From: an uncultured Gemmatimonadales bacterium
Lineage (GTDB): Bacteria > Gemmatimonadota > Gemmatimonadetes > Gemmatimonadales > GWC2-71-9
Assembly (NCBI GenBank): GCA_963748815.1
Contig: CAVVKJ010000010.1
Coordinates: forward strand, 384,001 to 448,000
Length of the DNA: 64,000 nucleotides
Reading direction: 5' to 3'
Below, piece after piece: positions 10,413 through 25,925 of the stretch. The first letter of the stretch is position 1. The number at the start of each line of letters is the position of its first letter. A model generated the notes under the pieces. It was not told the DNA's origin. It worked only from the letters and a program-made list of their open reading frames with translations, and ran no database searches. The translations under genes were made by a program, and so were the position numbers.

Positions 10413-12081
<1,669 letters not shown>

Positions 12082-15502: not shown

Positions 15503-17101
15503 TCAGTCGAGGGCGACCTGCCGGACGGCCGTTACCTCGGGTAGGGCGCGGAGCTGTTTCACGACGGCAGGGCTCAATCGGGCGTCGACACCGATGGCCG
15601 CGAGGGCCTCTCCCCCCGCCTCGAGCCGGGCTACGTGATACTGGCCGATATTGATCGTCGCGGCGGCCAGCGCGGACCCGACCCGGCCGATGACGCCCGG
15701 GACGTCCCGGTTGCGGAGCAGGATGAGGTCGCCCCGGGGGTGAATGTCGACGTGGTAGTCGCCGATGCGGACGACACGCGGGTGGGCGCCCTCGAGCACC
15801 GCCCCTCCCACGCGAAGGGTCTCCCCGTCGCCGGTCAGGCGCACCTCGAGGTATTCCGCATAGTCGTCGCGCGGACTGAGCCGGGTGCGCTCGACGGCAA
15901 TCCCCCGCCCCGTGGCGAGGTGCATCGCGTTCACGACGTTCACCGCGCCGTGTCCCAGGACCTCCGACAGCACGCCGATGAGCGCCGCCGCCGCGATCGG
16001 CCCCAGTCCGTCCTCCTCACGCCCCGCGTACCGGACCTGCACCGTCTTCAGCGGCGCCGCGGTGAGGGTCGCGCCGATCCGGCCCAGCCGCTCGGCCAGG
16101 TCGAGCAGCGGCCGGAGCCGGCGCATCCGATCCCCGCCCACGCCCGGGGCGTTCACCGCCCGGCTGAGGTCGCCGTCGAGGAGCGCGGCGCGCACGGCCG
16201 CGGAAATCTCAAGCGCGACGTTCTGCTGCGCCTCCTCGGTCGAGGCGCCGAGGTGGGGCGTGAGGACGGCGTTGTCGAGCGACCGGAAGGGGTGGTCCGC
16301 GGGCAGCGGTTCGACGGTGTAGACATCGAGGCCCGCGCCGGCGATCGCCCCGGTGCCGAGGGCATCGGCGAGCGCCCCCTCGTCGATGATCTCTCCGCGG
16401 GCGACGTTCAGGACGATGGCGCTCGACTTGAGCTTCAGCAGCTCGGCCGCGCCGATCAACCCGGCCGTGGCATCGGTCAACGGGACATGGACGGACAGGA
16501 CGTCCGCCTGCCGCAGCACCTCGTCCAGCGTGCCGAGATCGGCGCCGAGGGACTTGGCGCGGTCGGGCTGCAGGAAGGGATCGTAGATCAGCACGCGCAT
16601 CCCGAAGGCCCGGGATCGGGTGGCGACCTCGCCGCCGATCCGACCGGCGCCGACCAGCCCGAGGGTCTTGCCGTAGAGCTCGCCGCCGCCGAGCTTGGCG
16701 CGGTCCCACGCCCCCGCCTTCATCGACCGATCGGCCGCGGCGACCCGTCGCACGACGGCCAGCATCAGCGCCATCGTCAGCTCCGCCGCCGAGATGGTGT
16801 TGCCGGCCGGGGCGTTCAGCACGGCGATGCCCTTCTCGGTCGCCGCGTCGACGTCGATCGTGTCGACGCCCACGCCGGCGCGGCCGATCACCTTGAGGCG
16901 GGTGGTCGCTTCCAGGGCCGCCCGCGGCACCTTGGCCGCGCTCCGGACGATGACGGCGTCCACCTCGGTGAGCGCCTGCGTGAGGTCGGCGAGGCTCAGC
17001 CCCGGCTTGGTGATCAGTTCGAACCGCGGGTCCTCGCGCAGCGGGGCGAGGCCGTCGGCGGCGATCTTGTCGGCGATGAGGACGCGGAAGGTGGCGGTCA
17101 T
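15503..17101 (-). CDS. serA: D-3-phosphoglycerate dehydrogenase
   Basis: GRAGVGVDTID, GAGRIG, TPHLGASTEEAQ, C-terminal ASB/ACT region; own ATG at 17101. Confidence 0.95.
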   Translation of the reverse strand: MTATFRVLIADKIAADGLAPLREDPRFELITKPGLSLADLTQALTEVDAVIVRSAAKVPRAALEATTRLKVIGRAGVGVDTIDVDAATEKGIAVLNAPAGNTISAAELTMALMLAVVRRVAAADRSMKAGAWDRAKLGGGELYGKTLGLVGAGRIGGEVATRSRAFGMRVLIYDPFLQPDRAKSLGADLGTLDEVLRQADVLSVHVPLTDATAGLIGAAELLKLKSSAIVLNVARGEIIDEGALADALGTGAIAGAGLDVYTVEPLPADHPFRSLDNAVLTPHLGASTEEAQQNVALEISAAVRAALLDGDLSRAVNAPGVGGDRMRRLRPLLDLAERLGRIGATLTAAPLKTVQVRYAGREEDGLGPIAAAALIGVLSEVLGHGAVNVVNAMHLATGRGIAVERTRLSPRDDYAEYLEVRLTGDGETLRVGGAVLEGAHPRVVRIGDYHVDIHPRGDLILLRNRDVPGVIGRVGSALAAATINIGQYHVARLEAGGEALAAIGVDARLSPAVVKQLRALPEVTAVRQVALD

Positions 17102-18187
17102 GCGGCGAGCACCTCCTCGAGCGCCGTCAGCACCCGCTCCAGTTCCGGGAGGGTGTGCTCTCCCATGTGGCCGATGCGGATGGTGGAGTCCTTGAGCTTG
17201 CCGTAACCGGCGGAGATGGTGATCCCCTTCGCCTTCATCGCCGCGTTGACCTCGCCACCCAGCTTGCCCGGGGGCACGCGTCAGGCAGGTCACCGTCCAC
17301 GACCGGTACCCCTCCGGAGCCAGCACGCGCACGGGTACACCGCGCGCCGTCATCGCGTCGGCCCAGGCCCAGGTGCGCCTGGCCATCGCTTCGTGCCGCG
17401 CCCAGCGGGCCGGCATCGTTTCCGCCTCCATGCGCTCGAGCTGTTGCGCCAGCGCGTAGAGCAGCGAGAGCGCCGGCGTGTTGGGCGTCTGGTTCTTCAG
17501 GGTGAACTTCTCGAATTCGAGGAAGTCGAAGTAGATCCCCCGGCTGCGCTGCGCGGCGGCCCGCTCGAGGATGTTGGGCTGCGCCACGCCGAAGGCGAGC
17601 CCGGGCGGAAGCGCAAACGCCTTCTGCGAGCCGGTCAGCACGAAGTCGAGATTCCAGGCGTCGCTCTCGACGGGCACACCCGCCACGCCGCTGACGCTGT
17701 CCACCAGCAGCACGACGTCGCCCGCGGCGTGCGCCGCCTTGGCGAGTTCGGCGACGGGATTGAGCGCGCCGGTCGAGGTCTCGGAGTGCACGACCGTCAC
17801 GGCGTCGTAGTTGCCGCCCTTGAGCGCCTCGAGGAGACGCGCCGGGGTGTGGACGTCGCCCCACTCCACGGCGAGCGCGTCCGCTTCGAGCCCGCAGGCC
17901 AGCGCAATCTTGTGGAACCGGTCGCTGAAGGCGCCGTTGACCAGCGACAGCACGCGCTTCCGCGCGCCGTTTCGGAGCGCCCCCTCCATCAGGCCGGTGG
18001 CGGAGGAGGAGGAGATGTAGACCGGGCGCGCGGTGCGGAACACCCGCTGCAGCGCCGGCTGGATGCGGGCGAGGAGCTCTTCCATCCCCTTGCCACGGTG
18101 TCCGATCATCGGGCGGGTCTGGGCGGCGAGAACGTCCTCGGTCACTTCGGTGGGGCCTGGAAGGAAGAAGCTGCCGAACGGTGCCAT
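17098..18187 (-). CDS. Class V PLP aminotransferase (serine-pyruvate/phosphoserine type), frameshifted near 17275
   Basis: LPGPTEV, VHSETSTG, VDSVS, TGSQKAFALPPG; C-terminus GYGKLKDSTIRIGHMG lies in a shifted frame ending at 17098. Confidence 0.88.
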
Positions 18188-22509: not shown

Positions 22510-22722
22510 ATGCGTACCACCGGAACGGTGAAGTGGTTCAACGATGCGAAGGGCTTTGGATTCATCACTCCCGAGGGGGGCGCGAAGGATTGTTTCGTGC
22601 ACCACTCCGCCATCAGCGGCAGCGGCTTCAAGTCGCTGGCCGAGGGTGAAAAGGTGGAGTTCGATGTGGTCCAGGGCGCCAAGGGCCCGGCGGCCGAGAA
22701 CGTTACCCGCGCGGCTTCCTAA
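22510..22722 (+). CDS. Cold-shock protein (CspA family)
   Basis: [33 protein letters not shown]. Confidence 0.97.
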
Positions 22723-23665
22723 GCACGGGCACACGACAGCTCTTGGACTGCATGGCGGCATGCCACATGTGCGGCGCGCCGACCGGCACCAGCAGGTTGA
22801 CGCGGTTGAACCGCTGCAGGATGGAGAAGACCGCGGTATGCGCCGGATCGGGGGCGGGCATCCCCTCGCTCCGCCCCGCCGCCTCCGGTTCGAAGGTCGG
22901 GTCGAGCTGGTACTCGAACCCCTCGCCCGGGAAGAGGGTGGCCAGCTGCCGGAGATCGGCCAGCGGGATGGGCGGCGGCACCGTCCGCAGCGAGATGAAC
23001 TCTTTCACGTTTGTCTTGTACACCGGGCGCTGTTTCCAGGGCCCGAGCGACTGGTCGATGTGGGCGTACACGCTGCCCGGCGTGATCTCCCCGGCCAGGT
23101 TCGCCGCCGCGCCGCTCAGCGCATCGACGAACAGCGTGGTGAAGACACCCCGGCCCCCGCTCTCCTTGGCGATCTGCGCCGTCGTGGCGGCCGTGAGAAT
23201 CGACATCCCATCCGACAACTGGGCGGTATCCTGTCCGGACAGGTTTCCCGCGACCCCCGAATGGCAGCTGTCGAGCACGATGATCGTGTTGCTCGACTTC
23301 GACCGATAGGCCAGCGTCATCACCTCCGAGAGCGCCAACCCCTCGTCCCCCTGCAGCGTGTCGCTGGAACAGAGGTAGCCTCCGCCGGTGTCCTCCACGT
23401 TGCCATGGCCGGCGTAATACAGCAGCGCGATCTCGTTGTCGTCGGCGAACAATTCGGTGACGGCCTTCTTCAGGTCGCGGCGGGAGATCGTCTCATCGGC
23501 GGTGCTCGCGGTCTGGAGGCGGACCGCGAAGTTCGGCGACCCGTCCCCGTGGGTCTCGAGGATCGTGGCGACCGCCTTGGCGTCGTTCACGCACCCGCTC
23601 AAACTGGGATAGTTGGGGAACTGGTAGTAGTCGATCCCGATGACAAGTGCCTTCCTGCGTCCCAT
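22703..23665 (-). CDS. Caspase-like peptidase C14 with a C-terminal extension; 3' end possibly truncated
   Basis: [18 protein letters not shown], catalytic YYAGHG and [34 protein letters not shown]. Confidence 0.92.
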
Positions 23666-23702
23666 CCGCGCGTCCTCCCAAAGTGTGGTGTGCCCCGTTC
23701 GG

Positions 23703-25262
23703 CTAGGTCGCGGTCGGCGCTTCCGGCTGCAGGAGCGTCTTGCGGATCTTCTCGAAGAAGTCCGGCGTCTGGTCGACGATGCTGGTGTCCAGGTGCGAAT
23801 AGATGGTCGGGATGGCGGTGACGGTGGTCGCGACCGGGAGCAGCCCGAGCTTGCCGTCCATCTTGCGCTTGTAGGCGAGGTCGATCTCGTTCCGGCAGTG
23901 GTTCTTCCCGTAGTACTCGGGCGAGAAGACCGGCAGCACGAAGCGCGAGTCGACGATGGCCCACATGTACTTGGTCGTGAAGGGCTCCCCGATGCTGATC
24001 GATTCCCGGTCAAAGTAGATCGAGAGCGGCGTTCCGTCCGCCTTCCGCAGCGCCTTGAGCGGCTCCAGCAGGTTGGCCGCGACCCAGTCGTATTGCTGCC
24101 GGGAGTAGCTGATGAAGACATCGTACTGGCCGCTCCCCTCGGCCATCCCGGTCACCAGGAACTTCAGCGCGAAATGCGCCGCCAGGAACGCCGCGACCGC
24201 GATCGCCACGAGGGTGAGCCCCACCGGCGTGGCGAAGCCGAGCTGCCGGCCCGCGGCGGCGAGGGCTGCGAGCGCCGCCGCCGACAGGGTGCCCGACAGG
24301 ACGGCGGTGAGCCGTGGTGTGGTCTGAAGCCGCTTGACGTACTGGAAGAGCAGCGCGAAAATGGCGGCCGTGAGCGCGCCAAACACCAGGATCTGGGCGA
24401 GGAGGAGGACGGGCCGGTTATTGGGCTGGGGGACGCCCTCGGGAGTGAGCAGGGCGCTGAACGCCGACGCTACGACGAGCGGGCCGGCGACGGCCACCTG
24501 CCCCGGGCGATCCTCGTCGAGGCTCCCCACCAGCACAATGGCGTCGGCAAGGTCGAGGCCGGTCGTGTCGGCTCCCCGCAGGAACCGGCCGCCGGAGGTC
24601 ATGCCCGGCGCGTGCTCGAAACGCCAGGTCTGGGCGTTGATGGCCGATGAATCGGCCAGGGGTAGCACCAGGGACGCCCCGGTGGGGGGCGGCGTCCGGT
24701 TCCGGTCCGTGACGACCTTCACGGCCAGGGCCATCAGCGACATGCGCGAATCGTCGGGCAGTTTCAGTTCCAGCTTCGTGTCGTAGCTCAGCACGCCCAT
24801 GAACGGCGCGTTGATCTGGGTGTGGCCATAGCCGGTGAGATGTTCCTGGTAGAGGCTGGCCGCCTGATCCTCCCACACTTTCTCCCACGGGAGCAACATT
24901 CCACCGCCGCTCGCTTCCTGCGGGTCCACCACCGCATACACCGCCACTTCATTGCGCACGAGCGAGTCGACCGCCGCGGTCAGTTCGGCCAGCCCCCGCG
25001 CGTCGCTGGAGAACACGACGTCGAGCGCGACCGCGTCGGGGTGCCGCTGGCGGGCGGCGAGGTTGTTCAAGAGGTCGGCGAGCCGGAGCCGGAAGTCGGT
25101 CGGGTCGGCGTGGTCGCTGGCCGTGCGGATGCGGGGCACGTCGACCAGCACGATGCCGGGGGAGAACGGAATATTCTTTGGCAGGTAAAACCGGTGGTAG
25201 ACGGCGTAGTCCACCCTGCGCCAGATGCCGGTCAGGGCGGCGAACGCCGAGACCGCAGTCGC
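23703..25262 (-). CDS. CHASE2 periplasmic sensor - 3 TM - TIR domain protein; N-terminal TM region disrupted, true start uncertain (about 25310)
   Basis: [32 protein letters not shown] (CHASE2-like); three hydrophobic helices; [43 protein letters not shown] (TIR). Confidence 0.85.
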
Positions 25263-25325
25263 AGGATGAATGCAGCCGGTCCGACGTCAGTCGGGCCGGC
25301 TGTTTTCGTTGGGGCGTGTCGCCCT

Positions 25326-25925
25326 TCAGAACACCGTCAATCCGACCCCGAACCCGACGTCCCACTGCGTCATGTTGCCGCCCGCCGGGAAGAATCCATA
25401 CGCCGTCGCGTCGTCCTGGTGCGCGTACTGCACGAACGCGAACGGCGCGATGCCGAGGTTGCCCATCGAGAGGTCGATCCCCACGCCGAACTGCGCGCCG
25501 AAGCCGTGGGCCTCGCTGCTGCGGACGCCATCGGCATCCTTCGAGCCGAGGTACTTCGAGCTGCCCGCCCCTCCCTTCACGAACGCACCGGAGGTGGGCC
25601 AGGGGTACCAGGCGACGGTCAGGAGGATCAGGGAGATGTCACCCTGGTTGCCCTGTCGGCTGATGGAGCCGAGTTCGAAGCCGACGGCCACGGCCGGCCA
25701 GGCATACCCGCCGACGAGATTAAAATTGGAGGCGATGCCGGCACCGGTGAACCGGCAGGAATCACAGGACTGGTCGAGGTTGCTCATCCCGAACGTCGCG
25801 CGGCCCCACAAACCGCGGGGGCGGAGCTGATCCTGGGCCATGGCAGTCGAGACGGAACCGAGGATGAGGCCGGCCAAGAGGCCGGTGAACACCGCGGCCC
25901 GGGCGATGCGGGCTGGTGGCCTCAC
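25326..25925 (-). CDS. Small outer-membrane beta-barrel protein
   Basis: Signal peptide, alternating beta strands, WYP, C-terminal VGFGVGLTVF; CDSC motif. Confidence 0.75.
   Translation of the reverse strand: MRPPARIARAAVFTGLLAGLILGSVSTAMAQDQLRPRGLWGRATFGMSNLDQSCDSCRFTGAGIASNFNLVGGYAWPAVAVGFELGSISRQGNQGDISLILLTVAWYPWPTSGAFVKGGAGSSKYLGSKDADGVRSSEAHGFGAQFGVGIDLSMGNLGIAPFAFVQYAHQDDATAYGFFPAGGNMTQWDVGFGVGLTVF

Follow-up and report, generated by a model that had tools for sequence, protein, structure and literature searches.

In type IV Thoeris, N7-cyclic ADP-ribose (N7-cADPR) made by a TIR protein activates Arg-specific, promiscuous proteolysis by a caspase-like protease, and the C-terminal domain of the caspase is proposed as the binding site (10.1101/2024.10.24.620036). 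The TIR protein itself is not cleaved by the caspase. The residues mutated in the validated Pseudomonas system are numbered Glu79 in the TIR protein and Cys129 in the caspase, and the rule used to detect such systems calls for a TIR gene (by TIR_2 or ThsB profile) no more than one gene away from a caspase (10.1101/2024.10.24.620036). In other described modules, genes for FecR and tetratricopeptide-repeat (TPR) proteins lie beside CHASE2 receptors with an adenylate cyclase output in Campylobacterota (PMC9239204), or beside a CHASE2 histidine kinase in the BiofilmReg operon of Burkholderia (PMC5192318). What CHASE2 domains sense was unknown as of 2016 (PMC5192318). Here we analyze a locus in which a candidate CHASE2-TIR receptor gene adjoins a caspase gene. 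The stretch that contains it, called the window, comprises 64,000 nt of an uncultured Gemmatimonadales bacterium (positions 384,001 to 448,000 of contig CAVVKJ010000010.1, assembly GCA_963748815.1), the genome of which (G000) is estimated to be 86% complete.

Comparative analysis of sequences from related genomes indicates a real, recurrent operon, in which a predicted membrane TIR receptor replaces ThsB beside a type IV Thoeris-like caspase. A sequence-only reading of the window had proposed that a receptor TIR signals to the caspase. That proposal is partly supported. For the intact operon of relatives, caspase ancestry, recurrence, the support for CHASE2 and the lack of any ThsB found in the three genomes searched agree with it. 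It is not supported for the window copy, which is broken.

The intact operon and its caspase

The intact operon is found in two Gemmatimonadales genomes of the same genus (loci L001/L089 and L078/L090). Genes for a Ser/Thr kinase with TPRs, a secreted FecR-TPR protein, the receptor and the caspase are arranged in this order and in one direction, followed by a convergent Trypco1 gene. The two copies reside at different chromosomal sites, and their products share 75% (kinase), 65% (FecR-TPR), 65% (receptor), 86% (caspase) and 59% (Trypco1) identity. Between genomes G001 and G002, the ratio of nonsynonymous to synonymous substitution rates (dN/dS) was estimated gene by gene or by domain: 0.13 (caspase), 0.28 (TIR domain) and 0.34 (CHASE2). 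The distribution is patchy. The receptor is present in 2 of 16 other genomes of the genus, and G003 is its only carrier in samples of 400 genomes from the phylum and 300 from the family.

The neighborhoods of caspase relatives were counted in the best 80 of 382 confirmed loci, from which L001 and L078 were excluded to leave 78. A short ThsB-type TIR gene lies upstream of the caspase in 74 of these 78 loci (69 of 76 scanned open reading frames (ORFs) and five more by tblastn; two loci offered no ORF to scan). In L001 and L078, this slot upstream of the caspase is occupied by the receptor. No ThsB was matched by tblastn in L001, L078, L089, L090 or G000, and the ThsB profile PF08937 had no match in the three genomes searched. 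With ThsB-linked homologs the caspase shares 56-64% identity, and a tree places it in their group. The numbering of the validated system recurs in this group, with Glu79 in all 42 ThsB proteins of 123 aa found and Cys129 in 52 of 80 caspases.

As in the published detection rule, a TIR_2 match above the cut-off lies directly upstream of the caspase. The caspases of the intact relatives also have the features of the ThsE group: the PF00656 domain with residues H87 and C134, the C-terminal domain, and a clade placed among ThsB-linked caspases. The TIR domain differs from the short soluble ThsB in that it ends a 546-aa receptor with four transmembrane (TM) helices. PADLOC, which had been suggested as a check, returned TIR-domain and generic caspase matches, and none of its models covers the receptor. 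The NCBIfam EACC1-caspase model NF047832 gave 94.9-95.6 bits against a cut-off of 140, and a ThsB-linked control scored the same. A search of solved structures with the caspase retrieved only metacaspases, and a literature search showed no paper on a ThsE structure.

The receptor-caspase pairing extends beyond the two intact loci, where linkage was assessed indirectly by matching contigs by their size in base pairs between receptor and caspase protein clusters. Of the eight receptor clusters with at least 65% identity, seven have contigs in common with the closest clusters of caspases. In all, 14 of the 25 contigs that carry a receptor are shared (14 of 23 when those of 2.6 kb or longer are counted); six of the shared contigs are shorter than 8 kb, and one of 2,842 bp has barely room for both genes. 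Control comparisons by size gave no matches to 113 other caspase representatives or to 15 sister-cluster members. The linked caspases form one clade, with SH-aLRT support of 96% in a quick tree of 100 rows and 95% in one of 30 rows, and the linked TIR domains form one clade with 99% support (FastTree). Of 139 columns conserved in the family, 120 are retained in the seven linked caspases, including 30 of 35 in the C-terminal domain. Two expectations of the sequence-only reading are supported: the protease falls among ThsB-linked, type IV Thoeris-like caspases, and the pairing recurs across a clade.

Two further features of the caspase group were observed. At L003:3621-4961, the gene upstream of a caspase from the sister branch of the receptor-linked clade is MAP3K_TRAF_bd/TPR-S in place of ThsB, and sensors may have been exchanged on more than one occasion in this branch. 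In nine ThsB-linked loci (L022, L032, L033, L046, L049, L052 and L069-L071), a conserved ORF of ~90-100 aa is located directly downstream of the caspase and may represent a third type IV Thoeris component.

The receptor and its secreted partner

In the intact receptor, a structure model (pLDDT 89, pTM 0.82) and hydropathy place TM helices at residues 12-37, 311-335, 343-368 and 375-398. The arrangement of one TM helix, CHASE2, three TM helices and TIR is the layout of CHASE2 receptors. CHASE2 is predicted to lie outside, and the TIR domain inside, the cytoplasm. Assignment of the N-terminal domain to CHASE2 by Pfam succeeds at E≤0.01 in 18 of 51 receptor homologs. In a comparison of this part of an intact relative with the ESM Atlas (0.95), 29 of 30 matches are CHASE2 clusters. 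Fold searches with the whole receptor model returned two lists, both occupied by TIR matches.

The best fold match of the TIR domain is the TIR of a Hydra Toll-related receptor (Z 16.6, root-mean-square deviation 2.5 Å, 124 residues aligned). This shared fold shows neither homology of the whole receptors nor function. Glu is found at the catalytic position in all 51 homologs and in 178 of 178 members of the wider family. The latter count derives from 234 proteins retrieved, of which 187 span the profile and 178 carry the first TIR strand motif (nine were dropped). An invariant Glu does not by itself identify the product of the TIR. In G003 and G015, the two genomes with intact loci, TIR_2 matches no protein other than the receptor. 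Nine homologs (P0068, P0077, P0078, P0088, P0109-P0111, P0114 and P0118) have an extension of 130-190 aa after the TIR domain, with no Pfam match where scanned or annotated.

Searches produced 93 receptor homologs, and 184 representatives at E values up to 1e-30. Around a Maribacter locus, 10 of 401 genomes have the receptor, and around a Flavisolibacter locus 1 of 221 does. It was not found in 301 genomes around G433 or in 291 around G432, counts that describe samples and not absence. Among the IMG/VR viral contigs matched there was no full-length receptor and a single TIR-only match.

The most consistent neighbor is an exported FecR-TPR protein of 385-420 aa, encoded directly upstream of the receptor in all 11 Bacteroidota genomes examined (one gene is cut by a contig end). 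The same partner is seen at 7 of the 10 metagenome loci; of the other three, one carries a Sel1 gene and the rest are truncated or too short. The adjacent exported FecR-TPR gene recurs at both intact Gemmatimonadales loci. The secreted protein is β-rich with TPRs, and its N-terminal part matches FecR clusters in the ESM Atlas (0.93, 26 of 30 matches). Pfam recognizes FecR weakly (E 0.004 in one member), and the list from a fold search with this protein is occupied by TPR matches. One 1489-aa sequence, P0213, is a natural fusion of a CHASE2-like receptor, TIR, FecR and 18 Sel1 repeats. This single sequence, possibly a merge made in gene calling, gives a hint of contact between FecR-TPR and CHASE2.

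Gene order across these loci indicates that the constant unit is the FecR-TPR protein together with the receptor, and that the caspase is a clade-specific addition. The two-gene description in the sequence-only reading was incomplete: it lacked the constant secreted partner, and a caspase is missing from the neighborhood of most receptor homologs examined. This caspase-free majority points to further TIR outputs. Some receptor copies reside among patatin, CHAT/TPR-S, SLATT, TIR and STAND genes. Two Bacteroidota loci (L187:8097-8846 and L093:11782-12531) encode, just downstream of the receptor and before a CHAT/TPR-S gene, a conserved protein of 249 aa that matches neither Pfam nor NCBIfam families and is possibly a protease-activated effector.

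The truncated copy in the window

Both operon genes in the window lie on the reverse strand. The caspase ORF (22703..23665, 320 aa) matches Peptidase_C14 (PF00656, E=1e-17, residues 3-217) and aligns its His-Cys dyad at H87 (codon 23405-23407) and C134 (codon 23264-23266). A GGAGG ribosome-binding motif (23674..23678, reverse strand) can be read 8 nt ahead of the caspase ATG, and both intact relatives have a similar motif at this place. The receptor gene (23703..25254, reverse strand) is truncated at its 5' end, and its stop is 37 nt from the caspase start. Its encoded features, all on the same strand, are the CHASE2-like extracytoplasmic domain (24426..25211, approximate bounds; PF05226 E=5.5e-5, below the Pfam cut-off), three C-terminal TM helices that correspond to TM2-TM4 of the intact protein according to hydropathy and the intact-relative model (24141..24416), and the cytoplasmic TIR_2 domain (23802..24119, E=2.5e-12) with its catalytic-position Glu codon at 23886-23888.

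Much of the sequence-only description agrees with these data, namely two co-directional genes 37 nt apart, a GGAGG motif ahead of the second, a cytoplasmic TIR domain that retains Glu, and a peptidase C14 with a His-Cys dyad. The CHASE2 call falls below the cut-off in the window copy and gains its support from the homologs and Atlas matches given above. The count of three TM helices is right for the window, and the intact protein has a fourth, TM1, most of which is missing here. The region beyond the protease domain measures ~100 aa rather than ~80 aa. The description also overlooked that both genes are truncated.

The window contains an interior piece of the operon, 2,521 bp in length (22734..25254), that begins 11 nt past the stop of a cold-shock gene (cspA-like; 22510..22722, forward strand, Pfam CSD E=1.5e-30) and ends before the cspA terminator. 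Exactly over this interval, the window is 91.2% identical to L001, its closest relative, with no gaps; in core genes to the left of the piece, the nucleotide identity is 82.9%. The L001 receptor and caspase have 546 and 328 aa, and intact receptors range from 532 to 548 aa with four TM helices. Relative to these, ~30 codons are missing from the beginning of the window receptor gene, among them the start and most of TM1, and the frame reaches a stop before any start. The first in-frame start left is GTG at 25214, which would yield 503 aa without TM1. The caspase is native only down to 22734. Its last 17 residues are replaced by nine read from the antisense of the cspA end, with which the foreign tail overlaps convergently. 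Lost with them are seven columns conserved in at least 90% of 69 ThsB-linked homologs, so that the C-terminal domain characteristic of type IV Thoeris caspases is incomplete. An intact two-gene system in the window was thus rejected.

Positions 25255-25325 are a terminator region facing cspA and not receptor sequence. They contain an intrinsic-terminator hairpin (25272..25303, forward strand; z -6.65, with none of 200 shuffles as stable) that directly follows cspA in the empty allele, as it does in G002. The idea that a sequencing frameshift hides the receptor start in this stretch was rejected because the stretch matches that terminator. Beyond it lies a gene outside the system (25326..25925, reverse strand) that encodes a signal peptide and has no Pfam match; it is at the island's far end in G001 and after the terminator in G002. 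The junctions show 1-3 nt of microhomology, and no target sequence is lost relative to the cspA ends of G001 and G002. In G001, the entire island sits behind cspA, and the sequence that matches the piece starts 477 bp in.

We consider it likely, from comparison of contigs, that the window arrangement is an assembly chimera that joins an empty allele to a filled one. Joints of cspA to terminator are present in contigs from three of four public runs. In run X3, flank pieces with 0-1 differences leave 22804-25215 without cover, as in an empty site. Near-identical gene pieces continue beyond the junctions by 106 nt in X1 and by 49 nt in X7. No contig piece that bridges a junction is among those listed from the four runs, and 180 further pieces fall outside the listing. 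The other island genes were not found elsewhere in G000, at its 86% completeness, by blastn, tblastx or tblastn; the FecR-TPR gene is likewise absent from the window and not found in that genome.

The alternative for the window copy is real DNA, in which illegitimate recombination inserted an island fragment behind cspA and left two pseudogenes. A piece free of indels and with low dN/dS relative to G001 would be expected after recent capture, and the second cspA 3' end close by in G002 hints at a site that may attract insertions. However, both breakpoints fall within 2-3 nt of one target position, the normal place of the piece is only 477 bp away in G001, the near-identical contigs of X3, X1 and X7 show either the empty site or genes passing the junctions with none listed that bridges, and core genes of the window look frameshifted. 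A real insert is therefore somewhat unlikely. Whether chimera or insert, the copy is truncated at both ends and hence unlikely to work; it is probably a non-functional fragment, and it is the wrong copy for functional testing.

Other features of these genomes were recorded. The second cspA 3' end of G002 (L091:7585-7630) has its own terminator and lies ~0.8 kb from cspA, which suggests a site prone to insertion or duplication. In the window, a CTP-synthase-like gene ends early (11542-12081), and an aminotransferase-like ORF merges into a phosphoglycerate-dehydrogenase-like ORF (15503-18187). Both resemble frameshift errors of the consensus, and the labels were assigned by eye. Contigs C2 and C19 of G000 carry tandem arrays of Ser/Thr-kinase-like genes spaced ~3 kb apart (11 matches in C2 and six in C19). 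Sequencing-run shares stayed below 0.5 throughout and were not taken as a sign of habitat.

A proposed signaling route and its relation to known systems

The intact operon may function as a receptor-gated variant of type IV Thoeris, in which a sensor in the periplasm controls a TIR-made messenger that switches on the caspase. We assign this reading a probability of roughly 0.55. As gene linkage suggests, the secreted FecR-TPR protein would work with the periplasmic CHASE2 domain of the four-helix inner-membrane receptor. An envelope cue would then shift the oligomeric state of the receptor and cause the cytoplasmic TIR domains to assemble, as known TIR enzymes do. The assembled TIR domains would convert NAD+ to a messenger of the cyclic ADP-ribose type, such as N7-cADPR or a near relative. 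By analogy with type IV Thoeris, the messenger would bind the caspase C-terminal domain and release proteolysis, leading to growth stop or death. The trigger would most likely be phage or predator contact or envelope damage.

Several observations weigh against this reading. Only two intact receptor-caspase loci were read as DNA, and the remaining links are indirect. The caspase was assigned to its group through gene order and the Cys129/Glu79 numbering, rather than by comparing it directly with PsCaspase or with the DefenseFinder model. By hhalign (probability 0.2%), the receptor TIR does not resemble ThsB, and it forms a separate clade; AbTIR, named an NAD+ hydrolase in its structure entry, is among the best sequence matches to solved structures, and N7-cADPR synthesis is therefore not implied. 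G000 has a second TIR_2 gene. All seven linked caspases differ from ThsB-linked caspases at positions 38, 127, 160 and 165, which may reflect another trigger or specificity. Congruence of receptor and caspase distances was not found within the clade (Mantel r=0.09, 1764 of 5040 permutations), and thus the evidence shows one acquisition and co-inheritance and no more. No caspase is near the receptor in the 11 Bacteroidota genomes or the 10 metagenome loci (21 more distant copies), and a full-length caspase homolog occurs elsewhere in only 1 of 10 Bacteroidota genomes searched; therefore, the receptor usually works without a caspase. In addition, the intact loci are not within clear defense islands, and several Bacteroidota copies lie beside housekeeping genes (ribosomal-protein genes and polA, labeled by eye).

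Some of these points would be expected if the FecR-TPR protein and the CHASE2-TIR receptor were complete by themselves, with a TIR that acts as an effector by NAD+ depletion or signals to unlinked targets, and with the caspase as a co-inherited passenger. The pair without caspase at the 21 distant loci, the NAD+ hydrolase among the closest solved sequences, and the lack of distance congruence all fit such an arrangement, and a single acquisition would explain the clade. Against it, the caspase has been under purifying selection (dN/dS 0.13), with its C-terminal domain kept while receptor identity fell to 62-77%, and searches found no ThsB as an activator for it. We regard this alternative as improbable.

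It is similarly doubtful that the operon is coupled as described but serves non-defensive signaling in envelope stress, dormancy or community behavior. The caspase descends from a group of abortive-infection effectors, the receptor is patchy even within the genus, and the loci with patatin, CHAT/TPR-S, SLATT, TIR or STAND neighbors also speak against a non-defensive role. The published CHASE2-FecR modules, which drive biofilm or cAMP outputs (PMC5192318, PMC9239204), favor the non-defensive role, as do the receptor loci among housekeeping genes and the lack of a full-length receptor among the IMG/VR matches. Least probable is coupling without a diffusible nucleotide, in which assembled TIR domains or the Ser/Thr kinase switch on the caspase through contact or phosphorylation, or in which the receptor or Trypco1 is cut by the caspase in a limited regulatory step: the kinase-TPR (75% identical) and Trypco1 (59%) genes flank the operon in both genomes despite the different chromosomal sites, the caspase substitutions are clade-specific, and autoproteolysis is proposed for CHASE2-caspase fusions in EACC2 systems (PMC8195603), but the TIR Glu is invariant, the proposed nucleotide-binding domain of the caspase is conserved, the TIR protein is left uncleaved in type IV Thoeris (10.1101/2024.10.24.620036), and the kinase and Trypco1 linkage is known from two genomes.

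A broader form of the receptor-gated reading is that the FecR-TPR protein and the CHASE2-4TM-TIR receptor constitute a widespread, undescribed class of surface receptors, one clade of which took over the type IV Thoeris caspase, so that a periplasmic cue would lead through an NAD-derived messenger to a death protease. This proposal is tentative, and we hold it at somewhat less than even odds. If true, the cue would be detected before phage DNA is expressed, and bacteria would have a functional parallel of Toll-like-receptor-to-caspase signaling. The Thoeris TIR sensors in the cited papers are soluble and intracellular; with a membrane receptor upstream of a caspase of this kind, detection would shift to the cell envelope. 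Because the published peptide reporter for the caspase reads out directly, CHASE2 sensing and the question of a FecR-TPR co-receptor become testable.

The sequence-only reading named no characterized system with this architecture. No description of a CHASE2-TIR receptor was found in the literature covered, which included few subscription papers; Table S1 of the type IV Thoeris paper could list one because its rule accepts TIR_2. The available text of a Thoeris survey (10.64898/2025.12.03.692087) does not mention "periplasm," "sensor" or "fused," and its Table S1 could list the receptor.

Toll-like receptors and interleukin-1 receptors of animals have an outside sensor, a membrane span and an inside TIR domain. 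The receptor described here differs from them in having CHASE2 and four helices, as opposed to LRR or Ig domains and one helix. DdvA-DdvS of Myxococcus xanthus resembles the operon in that an anti-phage output is under the control of a transmembrane protein whose TPR region is periplasmic (PMC11506125); however, that system is an anti-sigma/extracytoplasmic-function (ECF) transcription switch, with no TIR or nucleotide messenger in the available description. EACC2-caspase proteins, in which CHASE2 is a variable C-terminal domain in predicted conflict systems (PMC8195603), also couple predicted CHASE2 sensing to a caspase. They do so in one polypeptide with proposed autoproteolysis and no TIR, whereas here separate genes are bridged by a TIR domain.

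In the FecR/TPR-CHASE2 modules, a gene with a FecR domain (and TPRs) adjoins a TM-CHASE2-3TM receptor, as it does here, but the output here is a TIR domain with a conserved Glu, joined by a caspase in one clade. Type IV Thoeris likewise has a TIR gene directly upstream of a C14 protease of ~325 aa with a conserved C-terminal domain (10.1101/2024.10.24.620036). There, the TIR protein is a short soluble ThsB, whereas here a TIR_2-type domain ends a four-helix membrane receptor, the operon adds a secreted FecR-TPR protein, a kinase and Trypco1, and four positions of the caspase differ.

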